From Candidatus Nomurabacteria bacterium (GTDB lineage Bacteria; Patescibacteriota; Minisyncoccia; Phycocordibacterales; UBA9973): DNA of 64,000 nucleotides. A program made the translations under genes and the position numbers. The notes beneath the pieces were generated by a model. That model was given only the letters and a program-made list of their open reading frames with translations, was not told where the DNA came from and did no database searches. Numbering within the stretch: the stretch's first letter is position 1; each line of letters begins with the position of its first letter. The stretch covers positions 4,829 through 68,828 of the forward strand of contig CALRAL010000001.1 in NCBI GenBank assembly GCA_943350875.1. The letters are read 5' to 3'. Shown piece after piece: positions 25,356 through 62,528 of the stretch.

Positions 25356-26189
25356 ATGGAAAACCTAGAGACACCCAAAAAAATTGAAACAAAATTTGAA
25401 AGATTAAAAAATTTTCTTGAAACACATAAAAATTCGATTGCAATGGTGTTTCATCGTCATGCCGAGCATACTAATGATAAAACTCAACCCGATGAATTTA
25501 GGAGATTGGCTATTGAAACTGATATAGATAAAACAATTGAGGCAGCAGGTTTAATTGATTTCGATTTAACAGTAGCATATTCTGTAAAAAGTTTACGTTC
25601 ATTTTTAACTGCTTATTATTTATTAAAACCAAATGATAGTATAAGTCTCGATCAAGAATCTCAAATTTTGCAATATGAAGCAATTCATTCTGGGCCAATG
25701 AAAAACAAAATACGTTCAAAAAAAGAACTAGATTATAAAGATCCAACAAAATTTAGTTTTTTTGAAGAATTAACAAAAGCTTTTAATGAAAACAAAATGT
25801 TGGAATTTTTAGTACATCATTCTGATGAATATGTTGCTAAGGGTGAAGATATTAGTGCTTACACTGTTGTGGCAAAAGATATAGCAAAAATTGCTCAAAC
25901 CTATATTAGATTTATTCCTAGGTGGAAAAATTTATCTACATCAAAATTTAACAATAAAAATCTATTTAGAACATTTTGTGCTAGAGAAATGGTATATGGA
26001 TGCTTTCGAGCGAAAATTACTGAGTTAGTTTCAGGAATTGAAGAGAGGGATTCGTTTGTTAAATATTATGATAAAAATTTAAGTCAAAAAGATATTGGGG
26101 TAATTATTATTAAAGATCAAGAAAATTTAGTTCTATTCGATGGTTTTGGACAATTAAGTTTTACAAGCTCAATTTTAGAAAAGATTTAA
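25356..26189 (+). CDS. Hypothetical protein (cargo gene 1)
   Basis: ORF 25263..26189; start trimmed to MENLETPKK downstream of the palindromic leader. No motif recognised. Confidence 0.4.
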   Translation: MENLETPKKIETKFERLKNFLETHKNSIAMVFHRHAEHTNDKTQPDEFRRLAIETDIDKTIEAAGLIDFDLTVAYSVKSLRSFLTAYYLLKPNDSISLDQESQILQYEAIHSGPMKNKIRSKKELDYKDPTKFSFFEELTKAFNENKMLEFLVHHSDEYVAKGEDISAYTVVAKDIAKIAQTYIRFIPRWKNLSTSKFNNKNLFRTFCAREMVYGCFRAKITELVSGIEERDSFVKYYDKNLSQKDIGVIIIKDQENLVLFDGFGQLSFTSSILEKI

Positions 26190-26199
26190 TTAGAAATTT

Positions 26200-27153
26200 A
26201 TGGCTTTACATAATTTAACATTGGGAATCCCTGTAAGAAATGAATCATTAAACTTAAAACAATTTATTAATTCTTTAAACATTTCTGTCGATTATTTACA
26301 AAATATCTACAAAGATATCAAGATTGAAATTATAGTTTGCATAAATGGCTCTACGGACAATTCAGAAAATATTATAAAAAATGAAATAATTGCCTCACAT
26401 TTAGACGTCCATCTAATTTTTAGCTCGGAGGGTAAATTAAATGCAATCGATGCTATTTTAAATTCTAAAAAATACAATGATCTAATTGGATTTATTGATG
26501 CAGATACTTTACTTGAGGTGTCGGCAATTTATGAATTGTATGCAGAAATTGTAGATAACAAAAATTTATTTGCAGTGTATTCAAATATGACCCCTAGGGG
26601 TAATGATAGTTTTATTTATAGAATACAGAAAAGCCATTATGATTCACGTTTCTCAAATACGAGAGGATATATTCACGGAAGATTTTACATTTTAAAAAAT
26701 GCTGATTTATTAAAAGTTGAAAGAATAAAAAGAAATAATAAAAAATGGATTTTAGAATACGGTCCGTTAGTTGATGATATATATCTTTCAAGGGTAATTG
26801 TAGCGACTTATGGAGTTGGCGCCATAAAAGAAGTTGAAAAATCAATTATTTATTTTAAACCACCGCAAAATCTAATAGATTTTTTCTTTGGTTATCGTAG
26901 AATTATTATTGAGCTCAAAAGATTATCTTTTTTATATCCCGAACATAATTTTATTCAGAAAAAATATTTTTCAAAAAATAGGTATGGGTTTAAAAAATAT
27001 AAAAATTATGAACAAAAATTTTTATATTTAATTTATCAAATAATTGTTCATTTCATTAAACTGATTGTCGGTTTGGAAATATTATTAATTAATTTTAAAA
27101 TTATAAAATTAAAACATGTCTGGAAAACAACACACTCAACAAAAGTTATTTAA
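26200..27153 (+). CDS. Family-2 glycosyltransferase
   Basis: LTLGIPVRNESLNLKQFINSL...IVCINGSTDNSENII...GFIDADTLLE (GT2 DxD motif). Confidence 0.6.
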   Translation: MALHNLTLGIPVRNESLNLKQFINSLNISVDYLQNIYKDIKIEIIVCINGSTDNSENIIKNEIIASHLDVHLIFSSEGKLNAIDAILNSKKYNDLIGFIDADTLLEVSAIYELYAEIVDNKNLFAVYSNMTPRGNDSFIYRIQKSHYDSRFSNTRGYIHGRFYILKNADLLKVERIKRNNKKWILEYGPLVDDIYLSRVIVATYGVGAIKEVEKSIIYFKPPQNLIDFFFGYRRIIIELKRLSFLYPEHNFIQKKYFSKNRYGFKKYKNYEQKFLYLIYQIIVHFIKLIVGLEILLINFKIIKLKHVWKTTHSTKVI

Positions 27154-27154
27154 T

Positions 27155-27733
27155 ATGGACAAATATTCCAAGTTAAATTTAGCATGTGGCCCAAAGGTAA
27201 AAAATAAATTTAAATTACCTTGGCTAAATGTTGATATCGATGGAAAAGCAGCTGATTTTATCTGTGATATAATGGTATTACAGAAAGAATGGAGTGGTAA
27301 ATTTGAAGAAGTTAGGGCTTCTCATGTATTAGAGCATATTTTTTTAGACGATGTGCCAAAAGTTTTATCCGAATGGATACGAGTATTAAAACCAAACGGC
27401 GTGTTAAGAATCATAGTTCCTGATCTTGATATTGTAATTGAGTCTTTAAACAGTGGTATTGATCAGAAAAAAAGGAAATCTTTATCGGTCGATACTACTA
27501 CCCCGATTTTATCTCAAATTTATGGATGGGGTTATTGGACAAAAAATACAAAAAAGGAATGGAGACACAGAATGATATATAATGAGAAACTTATTATTAA
27601 GATTTTGAAAAATCAGAAAAAATTAAAAAATATAAAAACCTACAAACAAGATCAAGATCCAGCATTTATATTCAAAATAAAAGATGATTCACAAAATATT
27701 TTTTCTTTATGTGTCCAAGCTCAAAAAAAGTAA
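27155..27733 (+). CDS. SAM-dependent methyltransferase (class I)
   Basis: LNLACGPKV...LNVDIDGKAADFICD...LKPNGVLRIIVPD resembles methyltransf_11/23-type motifs I, II and post-II. Confidence 0.5.
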   Translation: MDKYSKLNLACGPKVKNKFKLPWLNVDIDGKAADFICDIMVLQKEWSGKFEEVRASHVLEHIFLDDVPKVLSEWIRVLKPNGVLRIIVPDLDIVIESLNSGIDQKKRKSLSVDTTTPILSQIYGWGYWTKNTKKEWRHRMIYNEKLIIKILKNQKKLKNIKTYKQDQDPAFIFKIKDDSQNIFSLCVQAQKK

Positions 27734-27775
27734 AGTCGATTATATTTATTAGTATTAATAGTTTAAAATAAAATT

Positions 27776-28261
27776 ATGGAACAACCAATGGATAATAAAA
27801 TGAGTAGCAAAATAGAATCAACTAATTTAAAAATTGAATTTGTAAATTTAACTTTAGGAATTGAACCCTCTAATATTGAGACTTCCCACATAAGTGCCAT
27901 ATTTCTAGTTGGCATAAAAGACGGGATGATACTCGCTGCAAGAAATGAAAGAGGGTGGGATATCCCAGGAGGTCACGTAGATGCTGATGATACAGATTTG
28001 TATTCTGCATTAGTACGAGAAGTAGATGAAGAATCAGGTGTAACACTCAAAAAAGCTAAGCCTTTTGCTATCATGAGATTTGATGGAAAAGATAAATCAA
28101 TGCTGTTTTATGTATCCGATGCTTTTGAATTAGAAGAGTTTATACCAAAGGAAGATGCGTTTGAAAGACAAATGATGCCCATTCCAGAATTTATAGAAAA
28201 ATATAATTGGAAGAAAAACGTAATTCAACCAATAATTGAATATGCTATTCAAAATAAATAA
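27776..28261 (+). CDS. Nudix hydrolase
   Basis: Nudix box GGHVDADDTDLYSALVREVDEESGV (Gx5Ex7REVxEExG). Confidence 0.75.
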   Translation: MEQPMDNKMSSKIESTNLKIEFVNLTLGIEPSNIETSHISAIFLVGIKDGMILAARNERGWDIPGGHVDADDTDLYSALVREVDEESGVTLKKAKPFAIMRFDGKDKSMLFYVSDAFELEEFIPKEDAFERQMMPIPEFIEKYNWKKNVIQPIIEYAIQNK

Positions 28262-28269
28262 GAATTTAA

Positions 28270-28602
28270 ATTAAAGTATTTACTCCTCTCAAAACTCTGA
28301 GAGCAAAAATTCAAAAAAATTAATTTGCCAAAAAAAATCAAGAAGCACGCGAAGCGAATTTTGCGAAATACTTTCCCCCAAACCCCCAGCATTTCGCAAA
28401 ATTTCGCTCGCGTTCCGCATTTCTGCACTCCGCCTCCTTTGCCCCCAAAACATTGTGGCGGAGTGCAGAGCATTCTCCCGCACTTCTGCTTCAGCAGAAG
28501 CTCTGTGCTTCGCACAGAGGCGCTTCAGCGCGCGGGGAACGCTTGTGGATATTCTCACGAATTTTTGATAAAGTAAGTTCGAGCGGAATCGTAAAGACAC
28601 TC
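28270..28602. repeat. Inverted repeat C, right copy; ends exactly at the prfB ATG
   Basis: See 24812-25130; ...CGTAAAGACACTC|ATG. Confidence 0.8.
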
Positions 28603-35555: not shown

Positions 35556-35760
35556 AAGACAAAATGTTGATAAAAAAGACGTGCTGTGTCTCTTGAATAA
35601 AATCCGAACTTTTTTCCAAAACAATCCGGATGCTGACTAATACCGACCAGCGCCTCGCAAAGCCTCGGCGCTCCGCCCTCGCCCCATTCCGCCTTTCATT
35701 CTAATTTTTTTCGCGGGGGGATTCTTTTTGAAATTGTATGGGCGGAAACGGGGCTCGGTC
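35556..35760. repeat. Inverted repeat D, left copy (~200 bp, GC-rich); partner at 43195-43382
   Basis: The reverse complement of 43195-43382 is essentially identical (TGCTGTGTCTCTTGAATAAAATCCGAAC...CGCCTCGCAAAGCCTCGGCG...CGCGGGGGGATTC...GGCTCGGTCGGGC). Confidence 0.8.
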
Positions 35761-36207
35761 GGGCTTCTTCTAAGGAAGAAGCGGTCGGTAAATACGTGGT
35801 GTCTCGGACATTATACTATTTTTGATCGTCCGTGACCAAAGGAGTCCATCCTCGGCATTCGCCTCGGACATTTCCGCTAGGGCTACTCGCGCCTAGATGT
35901 CTAGGTTTGGCGCGTTTCCTCGCTCTACGGCACTGTGGTGCCGGAGCTCGGGCGCCAGCAGTTTGGGGGAAGGAAGGAATCCTTCCCCCAGCTTCGCCTC
36001 GTCTCGGCAGGGCTCGACCAACCGGCTCAGCCAACCCCCATCCTCGTTTTCATATCCGAGTATTTCTCAAGATTTTAGATTATCCTTTGTTTATATCGTC
36101 GGCGCTCATCCTTTAGCCACGGACGCCCGTCGCGGAAATGTCCGAGGCTCAAATTCGTATTGCACACTTGACCCACCCTCCCGTTCGCGTGTGCGCAAAA
36201 CCCCGCT
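35761..36207. ncRNA. GC-rich ~450-bp non-coding island with many nested hairpins; candidate structured RNA of unknown class
   Basis: Much more GC-rich than surrounding CDSs (as are the rRNA and tRNAs here). Long-range inverted pair CGCCTCGGACATTTCCGC (35858) / GCGGAAATGTCCGAGG (36128); perfect 9-bp stem GGGGGAAGG-AAGGAAT-CCTTCCCCC; a TTGGTC-N18-TATAAT-like promoter on the minus strand near 35800-35830. The ORFs here are Arg/Pro/Ala-rich and look spurious. Confidence 0.4.
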
Positions 36208-36240
36208 CGCAAGGACGAGAGGCGTGCGAGCGGGGCTCCC
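36208..36240 (-). terminator. Rho-independent terminator for the minus-strand operon (11-bp stem CCCCGCTCGCA...TGCGAGCGGGG, then a T-tract on the minus strand)
   Basis: Seen directly after the stop of the nuclease gene. Confidence 0.65.
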
Positions 36241-36990
36241 TTAATTTTCTAAAACTTTTCTTGCGTTCCAGTATGCACACCAATCACAATGCTCACCAGA
36301 TTTTGGTATCACATCACTTTCTAAACATTTTTTAATTTCAAACAAAGTTTTTTCAACCCAAGAATCATCGCCTTTGTGTTCAATCAAATTGACATCAAAA
36401 TCAATTCGTTTATCAAATGCTTGTCTATCCATTTTTCCAGTGCAATATACAAAATAACCAATATCAGAGACCTTTAGCCCATTCTGCCTCAAAAGCCACT
36501 GATACACCTCCATTTGGCGTTTATAGCCATCTTGCCACTCTTTATCCAGCGCTTTAACAGCTTCATCCTTTGCAGTGGCTTTATAATCCACGACAATATA
36601 CTCGTCTTTTCCGTTGATCCACAAATCATCAATCGCACCAGTTACCAAAAGTCCAGTCGGCTCATGCAAATATCTAATACCACCAAAATTTCTTCGCCAT
36701 TCATCAAGCTCTTTGTGAGACATTGGTCGTGCGTCAATTCCATATTCTTTTTGTAGTGGGTGCTGTTCGTTTTTTGTACGGTATGAATCAAATTCTTGTT
36801 TAAGAAGATAATCAACCGCACTATTGATAGAAAACGGAAATCCGGGTACTCGTTTTACACCAAGTTTGTTATCAATGTAAAAACATCGTGGACACTCTTT
36901 AAACAAATCAATTTTAGAACGAGAAAGTTTCCAGTTCTTTCCGCCATAATTCCACCCATCACCTCTATTTGCTTTATAGTATTCAGACAT
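36241..36990 (-). CDS. Cas4/RecB-like PD-(D/E)xK nuclease with four Cys (CxxC...CxxC), putative Fe-S cluster
   Basis: N-terminal CPRC, core GAIDDLWING...DEYIVVDYKATAK (D...E-x-x-x-D-Y-K), C-terminal HCDWC. Confidence 0.65.
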   Translation of the reverse strand: MSEYYKANRGDGWNYGGKNWKLSRSKIDLFKECPRCFYIDNKLGVKRVPGFPFSINSAVDYLLKQEFDSYRTKNEQHPLQKEYGIDARPMSHKELDEWRRNFGGIRYLHEPTGLLVTGAIDDLWINGKDEYIVVDYKATAKDEAVKALDKEWQDGYKRQMEVYQWLLRQNGLKVSDIGYFVYCTGKMDRQAFDKRIDFDVNLIEHKGDDSWVEKTLFEIKKCLESDVIPKSGEHCDWCAYWNARKVLEN

Positions 36991-36999
36991 AAAATTTTG

Positions 37000-38502
37000 T
37001 TAATTATAATATGAGTCAAACACTTGCACCTCCTTTTTGCTAATAAGAGTCTTCGTTTTGCCGATTTTTGCCTTATCAATATATGACCTATCCTCGATTG
37101 ATTTTTTAATCACTGCATCATCAATCCAATCTGTAACAAAGATATTTTGCGCTTCACCATCTACGGCTTTACACAATTTCTCATTAAGCGATAGTTTAAA
37201 TTTCAAACCAATCGACATTCTCTGTATCCAAATTTCAATTAGTCCAGTATTTGAAAGATTACAAATCTTATTCTGAATTTTTAGAAGTAGTTCTTTTTTA
37301 GATTTTATTGTTAGTTTTGATATACAACTCGATACTAAACCAGCGATCACGGGAAAAGCGTTTGGATTGTTATAAGCAATATCAATAAGCAAACTTGTTA
37401 TCAGTTTTTGTTGATTATAAAAATCTTTGTCATTAACCGCATCGAGAATTTTAGACAGTCTATTTTTAAGAGTTCCTGAATTTGGATGCCACTTTCCAAT
37501 TTGTTGGACAATCATTAACTGCCGGAGTAATTCTTTTTTTGATAATTTTTTAGGAACGGCTTCAAATTTAAGAGCCTCTATCTTGTCGGGTTTTATTGAG
37601 CCTGTAACAACATCGTCGCAAGAATATGTTTTATTAGTATTTAGACGGAAACCGAATCCTATCAGTGTTTCGCTTAGACATTTTAGAATTATATCTCCAT
37701 CCATTGTATCATTCGTGAAAATTCTATAATCATCTCGATACCGAAGTATGTGAAATTTTTTATCTTTCAACGTAGTATTAAGTTTGTTTGATAATTCAGT
37801 ATCAGCATAACCTAGGACTATCTCTGCTATAAAATCCATCAAAATACTTCCTTGTGGTATTCCATTAGTTTGACCATAAGACATTGCTTGAACATGGTGA
37901 TCAATTTTATTTCCAAATAAGTCTGCATATTTTTGCTTTTTCTTTGATTCTTCTTTTGTATGAATAGCCCAAGGTATTGAGTGCGTATAAATAGAGCCAT
38001 AACAATCAGTAATATCAGTCTGATATAAAAACTTATATTCCAAAGCTAGAGTTACAGATTTCTTTTCTACATTATTAACCCATTGCGAAATTTGAGATGC
38101 TCTTTGTTTAGATTTATATCTTGGCAATACAGGAATACTTTCGCATTCGATATTTTTATCACCTTGAAATTCTTTAAATCTATCTTGTAAAGATTTCCAG
38201 TTATCTTTCTGTGTGATTACATTTACTAGAGAAACATACAACAACGGGTTTATAATTTCATATTTTCTCCAAGCATATTTTCCATCCTTATTACCATATA
38301 AGATATGATTAACTGTTTCGTATTTTTTCGCTTTTTTAAGATCGTCAAATGTGAGTTCTTTATCTTTAAAATTCTTTGTAATAACAGAAAGTAATTTACT
38401 AAATGAAAAATAGGGTGGCAATTCTATATTAGAAAAGGATTCTTGGTTTATAAAGAATTTTTTTGCATCTGTTGGGTTTAAATTTAAGACATTTTTTGAC
38501 AT
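37000..38502 (-). CDS. Reverse transcriptase of the Abi/UG (defence-associated) type with an alpha-helical C-terminal extension
   Basis: RT motifs QTDITDCYGSIYTHSI (motif 2), NGIPQGSILMDFIAEIVL (motif 4, PQG), HILRYRDDYRIF (YxDD variant), LIGFGFRLNTNKT (motifs 6/7). About 180 aa N-terminal and ~200 aa helical C-terminal regions, with no maturase/En domains. Confidence 0.7.
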   Translation of the reverse strand: MSKNVLNLNPTDAKKFFINQESFSNIELPPYFSFSKLLSVITKNFKDKELTFDDLKKAKKYETVNHILYGNKDGKYAWRKYEIINPLLYVSLVNVITQKDNWKSLQDRFKEFQGDKNIECESIPVLPRYKSKQRASQISQWVNNVEKKSVTLALEYKFLYQTDITDCYGSIYTHSIPWAIHTKEESKKKQKYADLFGNKIDHHVQAMSYGQTNGIPQGSILMDFIAEIVLGYADTELSNKLNTTLKDKKFHILRYRDDYRIFTNDTMDGDIILKCLSETLIGFGFRLNTNKTYSCDDVVTGSIKPDKIEALKFEAVPKKLSKKELLRQLMIVQQIGKWHPNSGTLKNRLSKILDAVNDKDFYNQQKLITSLLIDIAYNNPNAFPVIAGLVSSCISKLTIKSKKELLLKIQNKICNLSNTGLIEIWIQRMSIGLKFKLSLNEKLCKAVDGEAQNIFVTDWIDDAVIKKSIEDRSYIDKAKIGKTKTLISKKEVQVFDSYYN

Positions 38503-38527
38503 ATTCTTTAGTAAACATGGAACGGAA

Positions 38528-40435
38528 CTATCTCCATAAATCTAAAATCGTATTCCTAAGCAAAACATCCTCTTTATTTAGATTGTTTCTTAATTTCTCT
38601 ACTTCATCGTACTTTTTCACTATTTTTATTTGTTCTGAAATTGATGGTAGTGGAATATATATTTTTTCCAATAAATCAGGCGGTGTTAGATATTTTCTAT
38701 TTGTTGATCCAGATGAAGCATTTGCCACTATAGACTCAAAGTCGCCTGATGAAATCACAAGATTAAGAAATTTTGGCAAGATTAAGTCAGTGTTTAATTT
38801 TGCGGTAGCCATGTTCGAAGTCACAACACAATCAGAATAATCTTTAGTTATTAATCCGAATCCACCAGATTTTGTATCAACCTTACACCAGAACAAAGAA
38901 TCATTTTTAACCGGTCTATATTTTAGAGTTTTCTTTAATTCTTTTCCCTTTACAACTTTAGAAATAAAACATCCTTTACCATGCGACCGCACTCCAAGAA
39001 CTTTATATTCCTTTTCATCGACAAGTGATATGGGTTTCTCATTATAAAATGATAGTACTTTTGATAATTTTACAAAATCATCATTTTCAGCATTATGATT
39101 TTTCAAGTATTCATTAGCTAACAGCTTTGATTGTTTACTTAGTAAAATACTTTCTTTTTTAACTATATGAAATACTAAATTGGTTTTGTGTGCTAGTTTA
39201 TAACTTCCTAAAATTGATTTCTTGATTTCATCTAGCAATTCTACACATAATGGTAAATCATTTTTTTCAAATTCTTTTCTTTGTAACCCCAAATCATAGC
39301 CGTCATTTTGAATATCGATAAAATACACAGAATCACTCTTTTTTGAAATCTCTTTATCAAAAAAGAGTATATTTGTTTTGTTGTCTGCGTAAGGATTAAA
39401 AACTCCTGAGGGAAGTGAGATTACAGCCCACAACCAATTATCTTTAACCAATTTTGTTCTAAGAGATCTAAAAGAGCTTTGGGTGTTAAATACTACTCCT
39501 TCAGGAACGATTACTCCGCCTCTACCGTTAATCCCTAAATGTTCTAACATATAATCAACAAAAAGAACTTCCGCTTTATTTGCTTGAACAGAAAATCTTT
39601 TGTGTGGCTTGATTCCGCCTGTTGGTGTCATAAAGGGAGGATTTGCCATTATTACATCGTACATTTCGTCCCACTTCTCATCGCTTGAAAGTGTGTCGTA
39701 TTCAAAAATTTTAGGCTCGGCGAAACCATGCAAATACATATTTACTTTTGAAAGTTTTACCATGTCAGGAGAAATATCATAGCCGACTAAATTATTCATC
39801 AATTTTTCTTTTTCGTCGGGGGTAAGTGGCTTGTCTTTTTGTTGTTTGAGAATATGTTTGTATGCAGAAATTAAAAATCCAGCCGTACCGCAAGCAGGAT
39901 CTAAAATTTTATCTCCTTTCTTTGGGTCTACTACCTCGGCTATAAAATCAATAATGTGGCGTGGTGTGCGAAATTGTCCTGCATCGCCTTGAGAGCCGAG
40001 AATAGAGAGTAAATATTCAAAAGCATTTCCTAAATCTTCGCTGTGGTCATAAGTAAAACCGTTAATTTCTTTCAAAAACAAAGTTAAAGTTTCGGGACTT
40101 CGGTATGGAAGAAAGGCATCTTTGAAAATATCTCGGAATAATTGTGGGATGTGTGGATTTTGAGACATTTTAGCAACGGCTTCGCCATAAAGCTCTAAAC
40201 GCTCATGTCCACCGAGTTTTTGGTCAAGTAATTTCGTCCACGCATATTTTTCAAAACCTTTTGTGAAAAATCTTGCTTTTCCGCCAAGTTCAATCGCTTC
40301 TTTATCCATATCGTCCATAAACTTGTAAATCAAAGCCGTTGTGATTTGTTCAACTTGGGCTTTTGGGTCGGGGACTTTGCCGACAAGAATATTGCGGGCA
40401 GAGTCAATTTTTCGTTTTGTTTCTTGAGTAAGCAT
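38528..40435 (-). CDS. N6-adenine DNA methyltransferase fused to a single target-recognition domain (M-S fusion)
   Basis: Motif I ILDPACGTAGFLIS; motif IV MANPPF; C-terminal TRD ending in the HsdS-type conserved block IYIPLPSISEQIKIVKKYDEVEKL. Confidence 0.8.
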   Translation of the reverse strand: MLTQETKRKIDSARNILVGKVPDPKAQVEQITTALIYKFMDDMDKEAIELGGKARFFTKGFEKYAWTKLLDQKLGGHERLELYGEAVAKMSQNPHIPQLFRDIFKDAFLPYRSPETLTLFLKEINGFTYDHSEDLGNAFEYLLSILGSQGDAGQFRTPRHIIDFIAEVVDPKKGDKILDPACGTAGFLISAYKHILKQQKDKPLTPDEKEKLMNNLVGYDISPDMVKLSKVNMYLHGFAEPKIFEYDTLSSDEKWDEMYDVIMANPPFMTPTGGIKPHKRFSVQANKAEVLFVDYMLEHLGINGRGGVIVPEGVVFNTQSSFRSLRTKLVKDNWLWAVISLPSGVFNPYADNKTNILFFDKEISKKSDSVYFIDIQNDGYDLGLQRKEFEKNDLPLCVELLDEIKKSILGSYKLAHKTNLVFHIVKKESILLSKQSKLLANEYLKNHNAENDDFVKLSKVLSFYNEKPISLVDEKEYKVLGVRSHGKGCFISKVVKGKELKKTLKYRPVKNDSLFWCKVDTKSGGFGLITKDYSDCVVTSNMATAKLNTDLILPKFLNLVISSGDFESIVANASSGSTNRKYLTPPDLLEKIYIPLPSISEQIKIVKKYDEVEKLRNNLNKEDVLLRNTILDLWR

Positions 40436-40438
40436 AAT

Positions 40439-42925
40439 TTACATATAAGTATTTACGGACACATAATCTTTGACATATTCCGGTATCACTTCACGAAAGC
40501 CGTTTAGCTCTTTGAAATCTCCCATTGATACTTTTGGATTTGTAGCAAAACGACCATATTCTTTTGATTCCACAATCTCACGAATTTCATTGTCGGTTAT
40601 GTATGCCTTTAGGAAATTTTTGATTGGATAGTAATATTTGCTATCGGGTTTGTAGATAGAGATAAACTTTTCAAATTCTTCTTCCAAAAGCTCATCTTTA
40701 TTTTTGAATTTATCAAGGCGACCAAAAATTTTGTCTATGACTTCTCGTAGGGAAATGCGACGATCAACTTTTGCTGATTTTCGGAGTTTTTCAAGGTTGT
40801 AAAATTCCTGCGGTTTATCGAAAATCTCCGTTTTTACATATTCCTCAACGGCTTGCATATCGCCCTGTTCATATTTCTCTTTGATAAATGAATCAGCTTT
40901 GATTGTGTCCTCAAATTTCTCAAAGAGTTTCCTATCAACTTTCATTCCCTCAACGCCTACGGCTTTTTCGTTGAAAGTTTTAAGTGGGTCAGGAGTTCCA
41001 ATAATTATTTCGTCAATATCAACTCCTCCGCCACCTGTACCACCAGTTCCAATTTTTGGTATTTTTAGAATCTCGTCATAGTTAAACTTTTCCTCAAAAT
41101 ATTCGCAGTTTGCAAAGAAATCAAAAAGCTTGAATTTGTCTTTTTCGGTATTATTTTTGTCGCCATCGTTTTCAAACGAAAAAACATATTTTCTTGTACC
41201 ACGCCCTTTGATCTGAATGAAATCTGTCGGCGAGAAAATCGGGCGCATAAGTCCGAGGTTTAATATATTTTGGCAGTCATAGCCAGTAGTCATCATCCCG
41301 ACAGTTACGCAAACTCTCGTTTTACTTGATTTATACCCATCGAGCCATTTTGTATGTCCGTTGAGATTATCATTTGAAAAATTGATTGTGAATTGCTGGG
41401 CGTCGCTGATATTTGAAGTAACTTGAACGGCAAAATCGGAATTGTATTTATTCGGGTAGTGCTTATCAGCTAATTGGTTAAGTATTTGCGTAATTTTTGT
41501 CGCATGGTTTTGACTAACGCAATAAATAATACTTTTACCAATTTCTCCACTCACTGGATCAACAAGAGCATTTTTGAGAAAAGTTTCGCAAAAAATCGTG
41601 TTTGTCTTATCCGAGAAAAATTTCCTTTCAAAATCCTTTTGGTAAAAAGTTTGTTCCTCTTTTCCTTCCTCCGTATCAACAAGCAGAGAATATCCCTCAT
41701 CAGATAAAAGCTGTGTTGTTATTTCTGTTCGAGCGTCAGCAACGATAGGATTTACCAAAAATCCCTCTTTCACACCATCTAACAAGCTGTAACGGAAAGT
41801 TGGCTCACCGTTTTCGCAACCAAAAGTAGTGTATGTATCAAGAAGTTGCCGACGCTCCCAAGCTCGCGGGTCTTTTTCGCCTAATTTTACAGGGTCAATG
41901 CCTTTGAGATAATTTTTCGGTGTTGCTGTAAGTCCCAGTTTATACCCAACAAAGTATTCAAAAACCGCTCTGCTATTTCCGCCGATTGATCGGTGCGCTT
42001 CGTCTGAAATAATAAGGTCAAAATCTGTCGGAGAGAAAAGTTTTTGATATTTATCAGAAATGCTTTGAATCGTGGTAACGACAATTTCTGCCTTTCGCCA
42101 ATCATCACGATTTTCTTTATATATCACAGTCGTATAATCTTTTGAAAGCCACTTTTTGAAATTTTTTGCCGCCTGATCTTCAAGCTCTATGCGGTCTACT
42201 AAAAACAATACTCTTTTCGCGTTTCCTGTTTTAAGAAATAATTTTATAACGGCGGCACAAGTAAGGGTTTTACCTGTTCCAGTCGCCATTTCAAAAAGAT
42301 AACGATCTTTTCCACTACTAGCCCAGCCCTGTAATGCCTCAATCGCTTTCAACTGGTACGGACGCAGAAATTTTAGGTCGTATTCTTTTACAAGTTCAGA
42401 TTTCTTGTCGTCGTTCCATCGTGGGTCTTTTTGATAACTAGGATTTTGTGTTAGTGCGATATAATCGGCAGTCAATTTTTCGTCCGCAAGTTTTTTCGGG
42501 TCTGGTTTGAATGCTTCAAAATGCTTCAGAGATTCCTGTGTTGGGAAAACTGTAATTATTTGTGGATTACCTCGCTCCAAATCCCAAAAATAATGTATAT
42601 TGCCATTTGAAAGAATTATAAAACGAACATTGAGCGATTGAGCATATCGACGAGCCTGTTCTTTTCCGTTCAGAGGGTCTTTCTCTTCTGATTTCGCCTC
42701 CAAAACTAAATACGGGAAACCTTTTTCGTCGAGCAAGAGAAAATCGACAAAGCCATCTTTCGTTTTATCAAAATCATTACCAAGCTCATCAACGGCATTT
42801 TTTGTCAGCTTCACATTGTTTTCTAGAGCAATGTTTGCTGTGCCTTTTTCATCGTCAAAAAATCTCCAGTTGGATTCTTGAAGTAAATTATTGATTTTGA
42901 TTCTGGCTTTGGCTTCTTTTTGCAT
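40439..42925 (-). CDS. Restriction subunit: N-terminal Mrr/PD-(D/E)xK nuclease plus SF2 helicase-like ATPase (HsdR / Type ISP-like)
   Basis: VDFLLLDEKGFPYLVLEAKSEEK nuclease motif; Walker A MATGTGKT; DEAH-box LIISDEAHRS; 828 aa. Confidence 0.8.
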   Translation of the reverse strand: MQKEAKARIKINNLLQESNWRFFDDEKGTANIALENNVKLTKNAVDELGNDFDKTKDGFVDFLLLDEKGFPYLVLEAKSEEKDPLNGKEQARRYAQSLNVRFIILSNGNIHYFWDLERGNPQIITVFPTQESLKHFEAFKPDPKKLADEKLTADYIALTQNPSYQKDPRWNDDKKSELVKEYDLKFLRPYQLKAIEALQGWASSGKDRYLFEMATGTGKTLTCAAVIKLFLKTGNAKRVLFLVDRIELEDQAAKNFKKWLSKDYTTVIYKENRDDWRKAEIVVTTIQSISDKYQKLFSPTDFDLIISDEAHRSIGGNSRAVFEYFVGYKLGLTATPKNYLKGIDPVKLGEKDPRAWERRQLLDTYTTFGCENGEPTFRYSLLDGVKEGFLVNPIVADARTEITTQLLSDEGYSLLVDTEEGKEEQTFYQKDFERKFFSDKTNTIFCETFLKNALVDPVSGEIGKSIIYCVSQNHATKITQILNQLADKHYPNKYNSDFAVQVTSNISDAQQFTINFSNDNLNGHTKWLDGYKSSKTRVCVTVGMMTTGYDCQNILNLGLMRPIFSPTDFIQIKGRGTRKYVFSFENDGDKNNTEKDKFKLFDFFANCEYFEEKFNYDEILKIPKIGTGGTGGGGVDIDEIIIGTPDPLKTFNEKAVGVEGMKVDRKLFEKFEDTIKADSFIKEKYEQGDMQAVEEYVKTEIFDKPQEFYNLEKLRKSAKVDRRISLREVIDKIFGRLDKFKNKDELLEEEFEKFISIYKPDSKYYYPIKNFLKAYITDNEIREIVESKEYGRFATNPKVSMGDFKELNGFREVIPEYVKDYVSVNTYM

Positions 42926-42931
42926 AAAAAT

Positions 42932-43219
42932 TTATTTCAAAAGTTCGCTACTGGAAATCCCCAACGCATTAGCAATCTTTTCCAAGGTGGAAAGAGTGGG
43001 GTTCATACGACCATTCTCAATATTGCTAATATATGCTCTATCCACACTCAAAGCGGTCGCAAGGTCTCCTTGCGACATATTCTTTTTCAGACGCCATTTT
43101 CTAAGGTTTTCACCTAATTTCTTGCCAGATGACATATTTTGTATTTTATTCTCACTTGCATCATATTGCAATCGTGTAATATAATGCACATAGCCCGACC
43201 GAGCCCCGTTTCCGCCCAT
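42932..43219 (-). CDS. XRE-family HTH transcriptional regulator (putative controller of the defence operon)
   Basis: LRKWRLKKNMSQGDLATALSVDRAYISNIENGRMNPTLSTLEKIANALGISSSEL. Confidence 0.75.
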   Translation of the reverse strand: MGGNGARSGYVHYITRLQYDASENKIQNMSSGKKLGENLRKWRLKKNMSQGDLATALSVDRAYISNIENGRMNPTLSTLEKIANALGISSSELLK

Positions 43220-43382
43220 ACAATTTCAAAAAGAATCCCCCCGCGAAAAAAATTAGAATGAAAGGCGGAATGGGGCGAGGGCGGAGCGCCGAGGCTTTGC
43301 GAGGCGCTGGTCGGTATTAGTCAGCATCCGGATTGTTTTGGAAAAAAGTTCGGATTTTATTCAAGAGACACAGCCCTGAATG
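43195..43382. repeat. Inverted repeat D, right copy
   Basis: See 35556-35760; abuts the recombinase-element inverted repeat at 43371. Confidence 0.8.
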
Positions 43383-45068
43383 CAAATCGCCGTTTTCGCC
43401 AAAATGCGGAGCGTCGCAAAGCGACGCGACCGGAGTTTCCGCCAGAATTCGCCAAGGGTTTTTGAAATCCAAAAGGAGCGAGCGGGACGCGAGGCGGGGG
43501 TTCTCTGTTCTCCGAACAGTCAAAACAAAGTTTTGTGAGCCAATCTTGAAGCGATAATTATCAATATTTAACATAAACCTTTTTCTATGAACAAATTCTT
43601 TCTCTACGCTAGAAAATCTACCGACGAGCCCGATCGTCAGATTTTGAGTATTGAAGCGCAGATTGACGAGTTGAAAGAATTTGCCACGCGAGAGCAGTTA
43701 GAGATTCTTGAAACTTTTATTGAATCACAGACCGCTAAAGAGCCGGGTAGACCTATTTTCAACAATATGCTCTCGCTCATAGAAAAAGGAAAAGCGTCGG
43801 GAATTTTAGCTTGGCACCCCGATAGATTAGCGAGAAATAGTATTGATGGCGGAAAGATAATCTATCTGTGCGACCTTGGCAAAATTAAAGAGCTAAAATT
43901 CCCGACCTTTTGGTTTGATGCTACGCCACAAGGTAAGTTTATGTTAAATATTGCTTTTGGGCAGAGCAAATACTATGTAGATAATCTTTCAGAGAATGTA
44001 AAGCGTGGACTTCGACAAAAAGTAAGACGAGGCGAACAAAGTGGTCAAGCTCCGACAGGATATTTGAATGACAAACTAAACAAGAAAATTATTCCCGACC
44101 CTGAAAGATTTCGCCTCGTCAGGAAAATGTTCGAAGTCTACGCTACTGGAAATTATTCTCTGAAAGAAACAAGGAATTTGCTCGCCCAAAAGGGCTTGGT
44201 GTCTAAAAATGGTAAAGTTCTCACTATTTCAAACACACAAATGATATTGAAAAATCCTTTTTACTACGGAATGTTTTTATTTAATCGAGAACTTTACCAA
44301 GGAAAGCACGAGCCAGCGATTTCAAAGAAACTTTTTGATAAGTGCGCAGAGGTATCGGCGAGGAACGCTCACCCAACAAAGCGAGGAATTATCAAACACA
44401 CTTTTCGCGGAATATTTTTTTGCGGAGAATGTGGCTGTGGTATCACCAGCGAAATACAAAAAGGTCATACCTATTATCGTTGCACCAAAAAGAAAGGTGT
44501 TTGCACACAAAAATATATCCGCGAAGAATTCCTCGCCGAACGAGTAAATGAGACTATCAAAAAGGTTTCTTTGCCGTCCGAGTGGAAAGAATTCATGCTC
44601 GCTGAACTAGATAAGGAGCAAGCGAGCAGTTTCCACTCTGACGAGCTTTTCGTTCAAAATTTGAAAAATCAAATCAAAAGTGTTGAGGAGACGCTGGACA
44701 GGCTTCTTGACGCTCATTTGGACAGCACAATTACGAGCGATGAGTATATCGCCAAAAAGCAAAAGCTCCTCAACCAGAAAATTGATTTTTCAGAGAAATT
44801 GAAAGATTTTGAACGAAAAGGCAATCGCTGGCTCGAACTTTCTAAACAATTTATTTTAGACAGCAACCAAGCCTTAATTATCGCTTCCGAAGAAAATCTC
44901 GAAGCCAAAAGAGATTTTCTTAAAAAGATTGGCTCGAACCCCCGCCTCGCGTCCCGCTCGCTCCTTTTGGATTTCAAAAACCCTTGGCGAATTCTGGCGG
45001 AAACTCCGGTCGCGTCGCTTTGCGACGCTCCGCATTTTGGCGAAAACGGCGATTTGCATTCAGGGCTG
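43371..45068 (+). mobile_element. Serine-recombinase element 2: recombinase gene bounded by perfect ~133-bp terminal inverted repeats (43371-43503 / 44936-45068)
   Basis: The reverse complement of 44936-45068 equals 43371-43503 (CAGCCCTGAATGCAAATCGCCG...GCGTCGCAAAGCGACGCGACC...GAGGCGGGGGTTC). The outer end overlaps the 3' end of tRNA-Gln. Shares the GCGTCGCAAAGCGACGC hairpin core with element 1. Confidence 0.75.
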
Positions 45069-45125
45069 CGGGTCAGGGACTCGAACCCCAATACCATCCT
45101 CCAGAGGGATGTGTCCTACCGTTAG
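43587..45125 (+). CDS. Large serine recombinase, paralogue of the 22901-24493 gene
   Basis: FLYARKSTDEPDRQILSIEAQIDELKEF...AWHPDRLARNSIDGG...NPFYYG...CGECGCG...YYRCTKKKGVC. The C-terminus reads through the TIR and the antisense tRNA, so the true end is uncertain. Confidence 0.8.
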   Translation: MNKFFLYARKSTDEPDRQILSIEAQIDELKEFATREQLEILETFIESQTAKEPGRPIFNNMLSLIEKGKASGILAWHPDRLARNSIDGGKIIYLCDLGKIKELKFPTFWFDATPQGKFMLNIAFGQSKYYVDNLSENVKRGLRQKVRRGEQSGQAPTGYLNDKLNKKIIPDPERFRLVRKMFEVYATGNYSLKETRNLLAQKGLVSKNGKVLTISNTQMILKNPFYYGMFLFNRELYQGKHEPAISKKLFDKCAEVSARNAHPTKRGIIKHTFRGIFFCGECGCGITSEIQKGHTYYRCTKKKGVCTQKYIREEFLAERVNETIKKVSLPSEWKEFMLAELDKEQASSFHSDELFVQNLKNQIKSVEETLDRLLDAHLDSTITSDEYIAKKQKLLNQKIDFSEKLKDFERKGNRWLELSKQFILDSNQALIIASEENLEAKRDFLKKIGSNPRLASRSLLLDFKNPWRILAETPVASLCDAPHFGENGDLHSGLRVRDSNPNTILQRDVSYR

Positions 45126-45135
45126 ACGAACCCGC
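45067..45135 (-). tRNA. tRNA-Gln (CTG)
   Basis: Minus-strand GCGGGTT-CG-TCTAACGGTAGGACA-CATCC-CTCTGGA-GGATG-GTAT-TGGGG-TTCGAGT-CCCTG-ACCCGC-A. Short D-arm; moderate confidence. Confidence 0.6.
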
Positions 45136-45192
45136 AATATAATGATAGAATAATACAATAATAGTTTTTAATCAAATAGTTTTAAATTCATT

Positions 45193-47446: not shown

Positions 47447-47872
47447 ATGATGACCAGCCTTATCACTATCATGGCAAGCATCATTAATTATATGGAATCA
47501 GATAAAGAAGAAAAGGCTTGGCGGGAGGTGAAGAAAAGTGAAAGGTTTAAAAACGCATTTAGGGGTTTGCGAGTTTTGAGTGCGACAACTAGGCATCTAT
47601 GGGTGCATGTATTTTTTACTGTATTGGCTGTAGTTTTTGGATTTTGTTTTAATATTTCTAGTTTTGAATGGATAGTAATTATTTTTTCTATTGGTTTTGT
47701 CTTTGTGACAGAAGCGGTAAATACAGCCATAGAGATAGACATAGATCTGACTTCTCCAGAATATCATCCATACGCTAGAGACACTAAAGACGTCGCTGCG
47801 GGGGCAGTATTGCTCTCTGTTTTTACTGCAGTAACAGTCGGACTCATTATTTTCCTGCCTAAAATTTTTTAA
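47447..47872 (+). CDS. dgkA: Diacylglycerol kinase (prokaryotic DgkA family)
   Basis: FVTEAVNTAIEIDIDL (EAxNTAIE motif), 3 TM; start trimmed (the ORF-track start at 47369 overlaps the upstream small ORF). Confidence 0.65.
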   Translation: MMTSLITIMASIINYMESDKEEKAWREVKKSERFKNAFRGLRVLSATTRHLWVHVFFTVLAVVFGFCFNISSFEWIVIIFSIGFVFVTEAVNTAIEIDIDLTSPEYHPYARDTKDVAAGAVLLSVFTAVTVGLIIFLPKIF

Positions 47873-47873
47873 G

Positions 47874-47898
47874 AATATCAAGGGTAGTCCTTGATATT
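47874..47898. repeat. REP-like palindrome AATATCAAGGGTAGTCCTTGATATT (copy 1 of 4)
   Basis: Perfect palindrome, near-identical to copies at 61072, 61780 and 62478 that flank a RAYT gene. Confidence 0.7.
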
Positions 47899-47935
47899 TT
47901 ATTGTTATTTTTTAATTTGGTGCTATAATTTCCTT

Positions 47936-59156: not shown

Positions 59157-60777
<1,621 letters not shown>

Positions 60778-61071
60778 TGAAAAACGTCCGGTAGTGAGAC
60801 TTTGCGACGCATCGCAAGATGCAGTGCTACGCACATCGCAAAGCTCTACTACCGGACTAAGAAGTCGGTATTGTGTAGCTCAATTGACTACACAATAGTT
60901 TGGAAAAACTTAAAATTTTATGACAAGCGTGGAAAGACATGCAAATAAAAAAGTTTCAGCCTTCGGGCTGATCCGCCTCTGGCGGAAAAAAGAACGAAAC
61001 AAAACAAAGAACAGCAAAATACAAAAAATACCCCACAAGGGGTATTTTTTGTTGTCTTTATAATAAGATAC

Positions 61072-61094
61072 AAAATATCGAGGACTACCCTTGA
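61072..61094. repeat. REP-like palindrome ATATCGAGGACTACCCTTGATAT (copy 2)
   Basis: Same family as 47874, 61780 and 62478. Confidence 0.7.
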
Positions 61095-61165
61095 TATTTT
61101 TATTAGATATGATAACCTTAAGAAAAGTACATTTCAATCATAAATTAATCCAAGAAAGGGTATAT

Positions 61166-61708
61166 ATGAATCTTATCTCGCTTATGTTTTCATCCACTTT
61201 CTTTACTGGTTTTTTGCCTGGCAAAATTATTAGTAAAGATGGTGCTGGTGGAGGATTAATGGGAAGTATTGTCGGTTTCTTCATTCAACTGTATTTCATT
61301 TATTACGGTTTTGGTTTTGAAGCTGATATATTGCTCATTTTATTTTCTTTTGTATTGGGTCTTATCTGTGTTGAAAAAGCAGAAAAATATATGTTCTTAA
61401 AATACGGGAAAAGAAAAAGACATACCGGTGAATTGGTGGATTATGATTATAATCAAACAAATATTGATGAAGTTCATGGTCAAGCTATTGCTGGTCTTCC
61501 AATTTTTTTCTTTAATTTAACTTTCAGTTGGCAAGTTACGATGTTAATGTTTTCTTTTATTGCTTTTAGGATTTTTGATGTTTCAAAACCTTGGCCAATA
61601 AAATTAATTGAGAGGAATATTAAAGGTTCTTTTGGAATAATGTTTGATGATACAATTGCTGGTTTGATGGCTGGCGTTGTAGTTATAATTACTTACTTAT
61701 CTTTTTAA
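61166..61708 (+). CDS. pgpA: Phosphatidylglycerophosphatase A
   Basis: FFTGFLPGKIISKDGAGGGLMGSIVG...WPIKLIERNIKGSFGIMFDDTIAGLMAG (PgpA DDxxAG block); start set at MNLISLMF. Confidence 0.65.
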   Translation: MNLISLMFSSTFFTGFLPGKIISKDGAGGGLMGSIVGFFIQLYFIYYGFGFEADILLILFSFVLGLICVEKAEKYMFLKYGKRKRHTGELVDYDYNQTNIDEVHGQAIAGLPIFFFNLTFSWQVTMLMFSFIAFRIFDVSKPWPIKLIERNIKGSFGIMFDDTIAGLMAGVVVIITYLSF

Positions 61709-61779
61709 ACAATAAAATTTCCCATCGGAGACAAAAAACTTGCTTCGGTGGGTTTTTTGTTTGTATTTAGCTACAACAA

Positions 61780-61803
61780 AATATCAAGGACTACCCTTGA
61801 TAT
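61780..61803. repeat. REP-like palindrome (copy 3), immediately upstream of the RAYT gene
   Basis: ATATCAAGGACTACCCTTGATAT. Confidence 0.7.
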
Positions 61804-61822
61804 CTCGTGGTATACTTAAGGT

Positions 61823-62491
61823 ATGGAAAGAAAAGTAAAATTTGCACCTAAAGAATATTATCATCTATACAGTCGCGGAGTAGAAAAAAGAAAAATTTTT
61901 CTTAATACAAAAGATTATGAAAGGTTCATAGCTTTGCTTTATATTATGAACCAATCAGGTGAATTTCATCTTGCCAATTTTTTGAAAAAGAAAAAGTTAG
62001 TAGAGATTTTTAATGAATCAAAAGAAAAGAAATTAGTGTCAGTTCTAAGCTATACGCTTATACCGAATCATTTCCACATTTTAGTTTATGAAAACGAAGA
62101 AGGTGGAATTAGTAAATTTATGTCTCGTTTACTTACAGCTTATTCAATGTATTTTAATACTAAATATGAAAGAAGTGGTCCTTTATTTACTCATCCTTTT
62201 CGCTCACAACATATATTAAATGAATCTCAATATTTATGGATATTTTCTTATATACATTTAAATCCAATAGGAATTATAAAAAAAGATTTCAAAGAAAATG
62301 GAATTGGAGATAAAACCATTATTCAAAAGTTTTTAGAATCTTATAAGTATTCAAGTTACCTAGATTATCAAGAAATAAATCGTCCTGAATCAAAAATTCT
62401 AGATTTTTCATTGGTTCCAGAGTACCTTTTAAAGAATAAATTAAACATAGAAAAGTATGATGAATGGTTCTCTATAAAATATCAAGGGTAG
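61823..62491 (+). CDS. REP-associated tyrosine transposase (IS200/IS605-like Y1 HuH transposase, RAYT)
   Basis: HuH motif LIPNHFHILV; catalytic Tyr region FSYIHLNPIG; flanked on both sides by the 23-bp REP palindrome. Confidence 0.7.
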   Translation: MERKVKFAPKEYYHLYSRGVEKRKIFLNTKDYERFIALLYIMNQSGEFHLANFLKKKKLVEIFNESKEKKLVSVLSYTLIPNHFHILVYENEEGGISKFMSRLLTAYSMYFNTKYERSGPLFTHPFRSQHILNESQYLWIFSYIHLNPIGIIKKDFKENGIGDKTIIQKFLESYKYSSYLDYQEINRPESKILDFSLVPEYLLKNKLNIEKYDEWFSIKYQG

Positions 62492-62502
62492 TCCTCGATA
62501 TT
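62478..62502. repeat. REP-like palindrome (copy 4), overlapping the RAYT stop
   Basis: ATATCAAGGGTAGTCCTCGATAT. Confidence 0.7.
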
Positions 62503-62528
62503 TTGTTTTTTATTGTATAATTAAATAT

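Follow-up and report, generated by a model that had tools for sequence, protein, structure and literature searches.

Where a mobile unit begins and ends, and why it should carry two abutting pairs of long inverted repeats, is the question raised by an island at a tRNA-Gln gene in a 64,000-nucleotide stretch of Candidatus Nomurabacteria DNA (contig CALRAL010000001.1; the whole stretch is called the window below). Here a gene for a 512-aa large serine recombinase (LSR) is associated with a 133-nt inverted repeat (arms y and y'), and this abuts a 183-nt repeat (arms x and x') that encloses defence genes. A sequence-only reading had taken the 133-nt repeats for the termini of a self-contained recombinase element. 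The junctions, both of the window and of 23 relatives that are resolved in full, define instead a single integrated unit of 9.5 kb, which runs from 35583 to 45068, not from 43371 to 45135, in the order attR (flank/x), defence cargo and helix-turn-helix (HTH) gene, an inverted internal attP (x'/y), the recombinase gene, and attL (y'/tRNA).

The island sits at the tRNA-Gln gene's 3' end, and its three junctions share the core CAGC. Read toward the tRNA, attL is ...GACCCG-CAGC-CCTGAATGC... (tRNA/y), the internal junction is ...AAGAGACA-CAGC-CCTGAATGC... (x'/y) and attR is ...AAGAGACA-CAGC-ACGTCTTTT... (x'/flank). These are the attL, attP and attR expected of one site-specific integration, except that attP is retained, inverted, inside the element, and it is because the three junctions share both core and pattern that the unit must be 35583-45068. 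It is bounded on the tRNA side by y' (attL) and on the other side, at 35583, by x (attR). The abutment of the inner arms, which the sequence-only reading had described accurately, is an intact inverted attP in which the 4 nt CAGC (43371-43374) belong to both perfect repeats. The parts of the unit are as follows.

35583..35586, minus strand: attR core, CAGC on the minus strand, at the host flank/element junction; the same 4 nt recur at 43371-43374 and 45065-45068.
35583..35765, plus strand: x, outer cargo-repeat arm, P arm of the attP copy split by integration; 183 nt, 100% identical to 43192-43374.
35602-35609, minus strand: GTTCGGAT motif within x, from a motif search.
35897..36244, plus strand: cargo open reading frame (ORF), 115 aa, no family match in profile and PADLOC searches.
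36241..36990, minus strand: cargo Cas4-like PD-(D/E)XK nuclease (PF12705, E = 8e-14; PADLOC Cas4, E = 3.5e-9).
37000..38502, minus strand: cargo AbiP2-type defence reverse transcriptase (PADLOC AbiP2, E = 6e-178; RVT_1).
38528..40435, minus strand: cargo methyltransferase of a type I restriction-modification system, in fusion with a specificity domain (N6_Mtase, E = 1e-53; MTase_I, E = 2e-96; Specificity_I, E = 3e-31).
40439..42925, minus strand: cargo type I restriction enzyme R subunit (ResIII and HSDR_N; REase_I, E = 2e-56).
42932..43219, minus strand: XRE-type HTH gene, divergent from the recombinase gene (HTH_3, E = 4e-19).
43192..43374, plus strand: x', inner cargo-repeat arm, P arm of the intact internal attP; GTTCGGAT at 43348-43355, 23 nt from the core.
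43371..43374, plus strand: core CAGC of the inverted internal attP, the overlap of both repeat pairs.
43371..43503, plus strand: y, left recombinase-repeat arm, P' arm of the internal attP; hairpin at 43411-43427.
43505..43519, plus strand: small hairpin CTGTTC-TCC-GAACAG, directly past the inner end of y, seen in the sequence.
43587..45125, plus strand: large serine recombinase gene; its conserved part stops at G449-S450-N451 and its tail is y' plus antisense tRNA.
44931..44939, plus strand: distal motif GGCTCGAAC, with a T-loop-like reverse complement, GTTCGAGCC; inner end of y', 134 nt from the core.
44936..45068, plus strand: y', right recombinase-repeat arm, P' arm at attL; hairpin at 45012-45028.
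45065..45068, minus strand: attL core CAGC, tRNA positions 71-74, from junction comparison.
45063..45137, minus strand: tRNA-Gln(CTG), B arm of the original attB; T-loop GTTCGAGT at 45079-45086, 18 nt from the core.

Both repeats are perfect, as had been stated for the 133-nt pair. The arms of the recombinase repeat (43371-43503 and 44936-45068) are 100% complementary over 133 nt and lie 1432 nt apart, which chance cannot produce, and the cargo repeat (35583-35765 and 43192-43374) brackets 7.4 kb. That the 133-nt repeat brackets the whole recombinase gene did not hold, since it encloses only the 5' 1350 nt of the ORF, and the last ~63 codons lie within the right arm and the tRNA antisense strand. 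The tRNA-Gln(ctg) gene was called both by ARAGORN (45063-45137, minus strand) and by Rfam (45066-45136, 51.6 bits); it is convergent with the recombinase gene, and y' enters its 3' end by 3-6 nt, as the earlier reading had it. In an Rfam scan of the repeat region the y arm matched no RNA family, the tRNA alone passing, and a scan for sigma-70 promoters and terminators between 42.85 and 45.25 kb gave nothing informative. Most relatives have, directly after the left arm, a GC hairpin that is the counterpart of the small hairpin at 43505-43519.

The same junction logic (attL, internal attP, attR) is obeyed by all 23 loci of the first 80 genome loci (L001-L080) in which both repeat pairs are complete, the core consisting of the last acceptor-stem bases, the discriminator and often the CCA of the tRNA 3' end. 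Shared cores are 3-9 nt long, and together (CAGC, CTC, CCGC and others) they narrow the crossover to about tRNA positions 72-73. The crossover segment displaced to the far end is visible in the window as CAGC at both 45065-68 and 35583-86, and in relatives as the CCGCCA, GCACCA or similar sequence kept at attR. The empty site would be expected to read ...GATAAAAAAGACGT-GCTG-CGGGTCAGGGACTCG..., also written ...AAAAAGACGTGCTGCGGGTCAGGG...; the orthologous site in another Nomurabacteria locus, L003, is likewise occupied.

By its domains (Resolvase PF00239, E = 7e-22; Recombinase PF07508, E = 7e-14; Zn_ribbon_recom PF13408, E = 4e-9) the 512-aa ORF is shown to encode an LSR, and the integrases of phiC31, Bxb1, A118/LI and SPbeta have the same three domains. 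In an alignment of 23 sequences, comprising both recombinases of the window and 21 relatives, the catalytic serine S11 and R9 of the Y-x-R-K-S-T-D motif are invariant, as are the zinc-ribbon cysteines C279, C282, C299 and C306, and some 120 conserved residues (aa 330-448) follow the zinc ribbon. Conservation stops at an invariant G449-S450-N451, encoded by GGCTCGAAC, a recurrence of the palindromic GTTCGAA-like recognition motif. Part of y' also encodes a conserved C-terminal peptide, KNPWxIL. Beyond this the C-termini of the 120 family proteins compared (P0001-P0120) are translations of antisense tRNA (...LRDxDSNQDTxLQRxVSYH) or of the P arm (...LLNKIRTFF...), so the last 20-30 residues of the database entries are not conserved protein. 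The 12 of 120 tails that read into the P arm could not be counted as isomers, as an assembler may pick that exit at perfect repeats longer than k. Matches in the PDB are remote and confined to the catalytic domain (E ~ 1e-6); the best matches in PLSDB and INPHARED are at most 30% identical, to entries named 'recombinase family protein' or 'integrase'; and IMG/VR holds three distant relatives only, none with this architecture. An exact-sequence look-up of the window recombinase in a contig index returned no entry.

The recognition sequences tie the enzyme to its target. In large serine integrases the motif for the zinc-ribbon DNA-binding domain (DBD2) lies 5 bp further from the centre in attP than in attB half-sites (PMC11722253). 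A GTTCGAA-like motif (GTTCGRA) is found 23 nt from the core in the P arm and 18 nt from it in the tRNA T-loop at 69 of 76 canonical loci; in the window these copies are at 43348-43355 and 45079-45086, respectively. This 5-bp shift shows, at the level of sequence, the signature of an LSR attP as against an attB, and it ties together the assignments of enzyme class, target and junctions. The P arm is conserved throughout the family as GAAAnnnGTTCGRAY... followed by the core. The 5-bp rule is visible in the left half-sites only, the P' half being degenerate.

The motif recurs a third time, as GGnTCGAAC, at the inner end of y, which lies 0-1 nt from CGAAC in 38 of 82 loci. The distances of this copy from the core fall into classes of 89-93, 101-103, 113, 125-127, 134-135, 146-148 and 155 nt, with centres at 91, 102, 113, 126, 134.5, 147 and 155 nt; the 134-135-nt class has 36 loci, including the window island at 134 nt. 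The classes fit a period of ~11 bp (Rayleigh R 0.68-0.80 at period 11 versus 0.25-0.61 at period 3). One clade keeps the distal DNA motif in a different reading frame (KDRT), which suggests constraint at the DNA level. We infer that y would be a complete, functional and helically phased P' arm, in which the distal GTTCGAAC motif is a putative accessory site, to judge only from its conservation and the ~11-bp spacing classes. Among 24 loci with 134-135-nt arms, y contains the conserved blocks TTYCCGCCA and TTTTGAAATCCAAAA and a GC hairpin whose stem co-varies (GCGC/GCGC, CCCC/GGGG, CGGC/GCCG, CCCCGCC/GGCGGGG) between the flanks GCCTCG...CTCGGC. The idea that y is a degenerate tRNA or T-arm was rejected, as it has no T-stem complement and no ARAGORN or Rfam match.

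We propose, as the probable explanation, that the island belongs to an integrative family of the Candidate Phyla Radiation (CPR), whose circle carries two inverted copies of attP and integrates through one of them. The free form would be a circle of two unique segments, R with the recombinase gene and C with the HTH gene and the defence cargo, separated by two inverted copies of a long-armed attP region of ~312 bp (x' plus y), in which the y arm would end at the third motif copy, at a helically phased distance from the core. The attP copy that lies downstream of the recombinase gene would be joined by the enzyme to the end of the tRNA, with crossover near tRNA positions 72-73; this copy would be split into y', beside the tRNA, and x, at the opposite end of the island, and the other would stay intact between the divergent HTH and recombinase genes. 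One split and one intact attP would account for two abutting pairs of perfect repeats, with nothing else needed.

The intact internal attP most likely serves as control region and recombinase operator for the two divergent genes, and most likely also as a second live attP, which would permit integration in the opposite polarity and the inversion of segments. The attP copies most likely stay identical through recombination or gene conversion with each other, and the orientation in which the recombinase gene converges on the tRNA is most likely a stable, probably silent, state. As explanations of the retained attP, we rank this combination of operator and second attP, with a stable or silent convergent state, ahead of a cassette system, and that ahead of a pure phase switch. 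The HTH gene is no more than a candidate for the recombination directionality factor (RDF). A single-stranded 'dumbbell', in which x:x' and y:y' pairing would rebuild attP, was discarded, as integration would cap the chromosome with hairpins.

The architecture is widespread. A search with the recombinase gave 7978 homologues (E < 1e-20), nearly all from Parcubacteria/CPR metagenomes, from which we compared 172 loci (80 from species-representative genomes, 80 from metagenomes and several contigs retrieved by exact protein). A repeat bracket surrounds the recombinase in 138 of the 172, and 79 have the canonical layout, in which the conserved P arm lies to the left of the recombinase and a convergent tRNA to its right; a further 7 end at the left arm. 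In 86 loci the target is without exception a tRNA 3' end, and the tRNAs used (Ser, Gln, Asn, Gly, Leu, Asp, Ala, Trp and Thr) follow the recombinase clade. Arms are 75-167 nt long, with no tie to k-mer size, and 85.7-100% identical: 39 of the 79 canonical pairs are perfect, 58 are at least 98% identical and 40 are imperfect. In the complete genome CP174360.1 the bracket is a 93-nt repeat of 98.9% identity. The earlier proposal of an LSR element family that targets tRNA 3' ends and carries cargo is supported, and with perfect arms and cargo that varies between close relatives it looks young or active, as had also been suggested.

Cargo gene orientation was fixed where cargos were compared, and a small HTH gene (65-95 aa) lies beside x' in at least 11 of the 24 other cargos examined, a set to which the window ORF does not belong. 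Flipped cargo could not be scored among the relatives, whose cargos were too different to compare; the sole comparable pair (L012 and the window) is colinear. Where recombinases are 92% identical, homology is confined to the recombinase, y and the final ~55 nt of x'; the distal x and the cargo differ, yet are still perfectly repeated. In this the x boundary resembles, by analogy, the repeat boundaries of plastid genomes, which ebb and flow. No correlation is seen between the identities of y and x arms (86/100, 100/94 and 95/85), and the two pairs are therefore homogenised independently.

A minority of loci depart from the canonical arrangement. On a 12.6-kb contig (L087) the order is tRNA-Gln, y, recombinase, y', x, cargo, x' and flank, with the recombinase gene co-directional with the tRNA and arms that are 95% and 85% identical; this is a robust case of the opposite polarity. 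In L003, the orthologous Nomurabacteria locus (recombinase 94% identical), the tRNA is joined to the left arm, and in L086 R is flipped relative to C; both are ambiguous because their arms are perfect and an assembler may have set the orientation. Five further candidates for flipped forms (P0012, P0014, P0068, P0092 and P0080) proved to be degenerate elements or hybrid junctions with other families. In at least seven loci the core is the exact point at which y' meets the P arm of a different element family. Hybrid junctions were seen in L088, L090, L009, L110, L112, L154 and L167, and in L081 and L082, with the foreign P-arm motifs GTTCTAAC, GTTCTGAA, GTTAGAAA and GTTCGAAA followed by more cargo; L082 has an additional 395-aa recombinase. 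These loci are heterologous elements accreted at the same tRNA. In L171 a different C cassette stands on each side of R; the joins fall exactly at the cores and the arms are only 80-87% identical. L163 has P arms on both sides of R.

A tandem array is seen in L073 (JBAXFJ010000001.1, 73-13415), where three complete tandem units (x-C-x'.y-R-y') lie at one tRNA-Ser gene, separated by two identical spacers of ~180 nt, each composed of a 21-nt fragment of the tRNA-Ser 3' end and 160 nt of the flank that originally lay downstream; L001 is in the same genome, which thus holds at least four elements. Together L087 and the hybrid tandem junctions show, from their sequences, that att sites recombine. 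The simplest reading of the arrays is that new elements integrate into attL, which retains the tRNA half, and this suggests that attL stays reactive. A degenerate copy lacking left arm and cargo was seen in L002 (2660-3050), where the 3' half of tRNA-Gln (CTGGCGGACAGGGACTCGAAC) is duplicated with an insert of ~120 nt exactly at the T-loop, suggesting a second, T-loop-targeting insertion.

It is possible, though we think it doubtful, that attL is read as a live attB, through its tRNA half only, and recombines with the internal inverted attP. If so, the recombinase gene would flip between a tRNA-driven ON state and a convergent OFF state, a self-silencing switch without an RDF; the same reaction would stack, invert and exchange cassettes (R, C and foreign elements) at tRNA genes, and the long phased arms would build a higher-order synaptic complex. 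We know of no large serine integrase that needs such a complex. A related and equally tentative alternative is that R (y-rec-y') and C (x-cargo-x') are separate modular cassettes, each bounded by inverted half-att sites, which the recombinase inverts, exchanges or stacks at the cores (attL with internal attP, or by cassette exchange), the repeats arising as each cassette needs the same half-site at both ends. The exchange of cargo and distal x as a unit between elements with 92%-identical recombinases would fit such cassettes, as would the exact core joins of L171, the paired P arms of L163, the hybrid junctions, the L073 array and the uncorrelated arm identities. Set against these are the nearly invariant orientations of R and C and the failure to see a lone C or R cassette at another tRNA; moreover, the pairing of attP with attL or attR is not a reaction of the known large serine integrases, and half-sites need only ~25 nt, not 90-430 nt. 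A switch that is not primarily mobile, in which an invertase flips its own gene, with cargo, to toggle expression relative to the tRNA promoter, would explain the long perfect repeats around both segments, the reversed recombinase segments of L003 and L086, and the canonical convergence of the recombinase gene with a strongly transcribed tRNA. We regard it as very improbable given the att logic of the three junctions (including the displaced tRNA 3' end at attR), the different tRNAs used by different clades, the variable cargo, the tandem accretion and the single orientation of ~97% or more of the loci, and the orientation of L003 and L086, with their perfect arms, could be an arbitrary choice of the assembler. 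Nor is this an invertase of the Hin/Gin type, serine recombinases of ~190 aa with a C-terminal HTH that act at ~26-bp sites with an enhancer; the enzyme here has 512 aa, LSR domains and sites with attP/attB asymmetry.

De Bruijn assemblers, meeting invertible or repeated segments, might also have created the repeats as fold-back chimeras; in favour of this, many contigs stop exactly at the arms, contigs of ~1.8 kb hold only y-rec-y', and half of the arms are 100% identical. This has hardly any probability in our view: imperfect arms (40 of the 79 canonical loci, down to 85.7%) are impossible by fold-back and, with the bracket in a complete genome, mean that fold-back cannot explain it, and many projects and assemblers have yielded the same architecture, in over 130 loci, at arm lengths independent of k-mer size. 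Equally remote is membership of a known serine-recombinase insertion sequence (IS) or transposon family with terminal inverted repeats, IS607-like or Tn4451/Tn5397-like. In IS607 the serine recombinase is small and carries an N-terminal HTH, and TnpB may or may not accompany it; Tn4451 has TnpX, GA ends and loose targets. A serine recombinase gene between inverted repeats recalls such elements, and the x end begins with TGTCTCTTGA, which is like the IS50 inside end. However, the protein has Resolvase, Recombinase and zinc-ribbon domains with neither N-terminal HTH nor TnpB, the element targets tRNA 3' ends exclusively, with attP/attB geometry, and annotated plasmid and phage matches are distant; the TGTCTCTT string belongs to the conserved P arm, not to a transposon end, and profile and PADLOC scans of the cargo found no transposase, for which reasons an IS50 inside end was discounted. 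The match to a known IS family that the sequence-only reading had allowed for did not arise.

Several observations weigh against the circle with two attP copies that we favour. No free circle, no circular junction carrying the far end of the cargo and no empty tRNA-Gln site was recovered in scans that were aimed at fetching relatives, so the circular quadripartite form is deduced rather than seen. Opposite polarity is represented by L087, plus the ambiguous L003 and L086, against ~86 canonical loci, when equally usable attP copies predict about half. The right (P') half-site has no cleanly mirrored motif. Known large serine integrases would manage with a 50-bp attP, and the need for arms of at least 133 nt is argued from conservation and phasing only; protein constraint adds to the conservation of y', as it partly encodes KNPWxIL. 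Finally, the arms stay identical with no visible inversion.

The window holds a second element (22961-28602) with the same order of parts, as the earlier reading had recognized, at tRNA-Thr(CGT) (22890-22965) with core CTC, and its junctions follow the attL, attP and attR pattern of the island. Its recombinase (530 aa, 22901-24493, minus strand) is 47% identical to the 512-aa enzyme, in agreement with the suggested paralogy. The y arms (22961-23106 and 24674-24819) are 146 nt and 100% identical, and the x arms (24817-25127 and 28288-28602) are 317 nt and 91% identical. The P-arm motif GTTCGAGC is at 28577-28584, 23 nt from the core, and the T-loop copy at 22942-22949, 19 nt from it. No HTH gene was detected in its cargo, which encodes a glycosyltransferase, a methyltransferase, a NUDIX protein and an unknown protein. 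The hairpin said to be common to both elements is a 17-nt palindrome, GCGTCGCAAAGCGACGC; every arm of the two elements has one copy, and these four are the only ones in the window, where 0 are expected. The two elements do lie as mirror images around prfB-ftsEX-pyrG, but this is incidental, each facing its own tRNA, and inversion of the 22.9-45.1 kb interval by cross-reaction appears unlikely because the recombinases are only 47% identical and the cores differ (CTC versus CAGC). In L004 and L002 the prfB-ftsEX-pyrG block (29-35 kb in the window) is on the 5' side of tRNA-Gln and inverted; relative to it, tRNA-Gln with its element is inverted as compared with the window and L003, and one end point is attR.

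Elsewhere in the window are a group I catalytic intron (21303-21535, minus strand; Rfam, 78 bits), between ORFs 20618-21238 and 21615-22349 and just upstream of the tRNA cluster, and a complete 16S rRNA gene (59158-60777). Direct and inverted repeats of 40-55 nt downstream of the 16S gene (61045-62522; 61062-61107 with 62471-62514, and 47870-47917 with 62475-62522) may be associated with 23S-gene insertions. A 115-nt direct repeat (13089-13203 and 13480-13594, 86% identity) contains GTCCGAAC/ATCCGAAC-like strings and has no linked recombinase.

The family has parallels among known systems. Like the phage large serine integrases it has attL and attR with a short shared core and the motif 5 bp further out in attP (PMC11722253), and the catalytic serine and four zinc-ribbon cysteines are invariant, but its sequence relation to the studied enzymes is remote, its attB is the T-loop-to-discriminator part of a tRNA, and its attP, ~310 bp with a phased distal motif, is present twice, inverted around the integrase gene. 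LSR-type islands at tRNA or transfer-messenger RNA genes include the ssrA islands of Dehalococcoides (PMC3146451) and the LSR-bearing minority of Prochlorococcus tycheposons (10.1101/2020.12.28.424599). These share with the family a small size, a site-specific recombinase, variable adaptive or defence cargo, a small-RNA-gene 3' end as target and tandem stacking. They are flanked by direct repeats of the 3' part of the RNA gene, whereas the core here is only 3-9 nt; an internal inverted attP or long inverted repeats have not been reported for either, nor are they found in the tycheposon text (10.1101/2020.12.28.424599).

Two unique segments between two identical inverted repeats, as in the inferred circle, are also the plan of the yeast 2-micron plasmid (FLP/FRT) and of plastid genomes. 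Each 2-micron repeat holds a site for the plasmid's own recombinase, and in such genomes the repeats 'ebb and flow' in length yet remain identical to each other. Here, in contrast, the enzyme is a serine recombinase and the repeats are attP sites for chromosomal integration; equimolar isomers are not seen, there is no replication function, and the family's circle is not observed directly. A recombination site between divergent genes, at which the recombinase could also act as repressor, recalls res of Tn3/gamma-delta, and long arms with accessory sites at fixed helical phase recall lambda attP, albeit in other recombinase subfamilies and reactions. The attP of CTX-phi likewise consists of two inverted copies of the phage's own attachment sequence, but its dif-like sites are ~90 nt apart and fold in single-stranded DNA into one XerCD substrate, whereas the copies here are at least 1.4 kb apart, each a complete duplex site for a serine recombinase.

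Full-text literature searches gave no description of this architecture, and this very abundant family of integrative islands in CPR bacteria is apparently undescribed. Three things are new: an attP that is duplicated, inverted and long-armed, a distal motif that is phased, and a T-loop that serves as DBD2 motif. Such an attP with its phased distal site is at odds with the textbook minimal LSR systems of 40-50 bp, and raises the question of how directionality is controlled. The family is a clean natural case in which a tRNA T-loop is read in this way by a large serine integrase, and it makes attP and attB predictable for hundreds of enzymes, which is of use in the discovery of integrase tools. 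It also has practical consequences for genomics, as its long perfect repeats form a recurrent break-point in CPR metagenome assemblies, and called recombinases have chimeric C-termini because the ORF continues into the tRNA antisense strand. The CPR, or Patescibacteria, make up a large share of bacterial diversity, and to our knowledge few mobile elements have been recognized in them. With thousands of members, and several copies per genome of ~0.6 Mb, this family appears to be a main vehicle for CPR defence islands, among them restriction-modification systems, defence reverse transcriptases and others.

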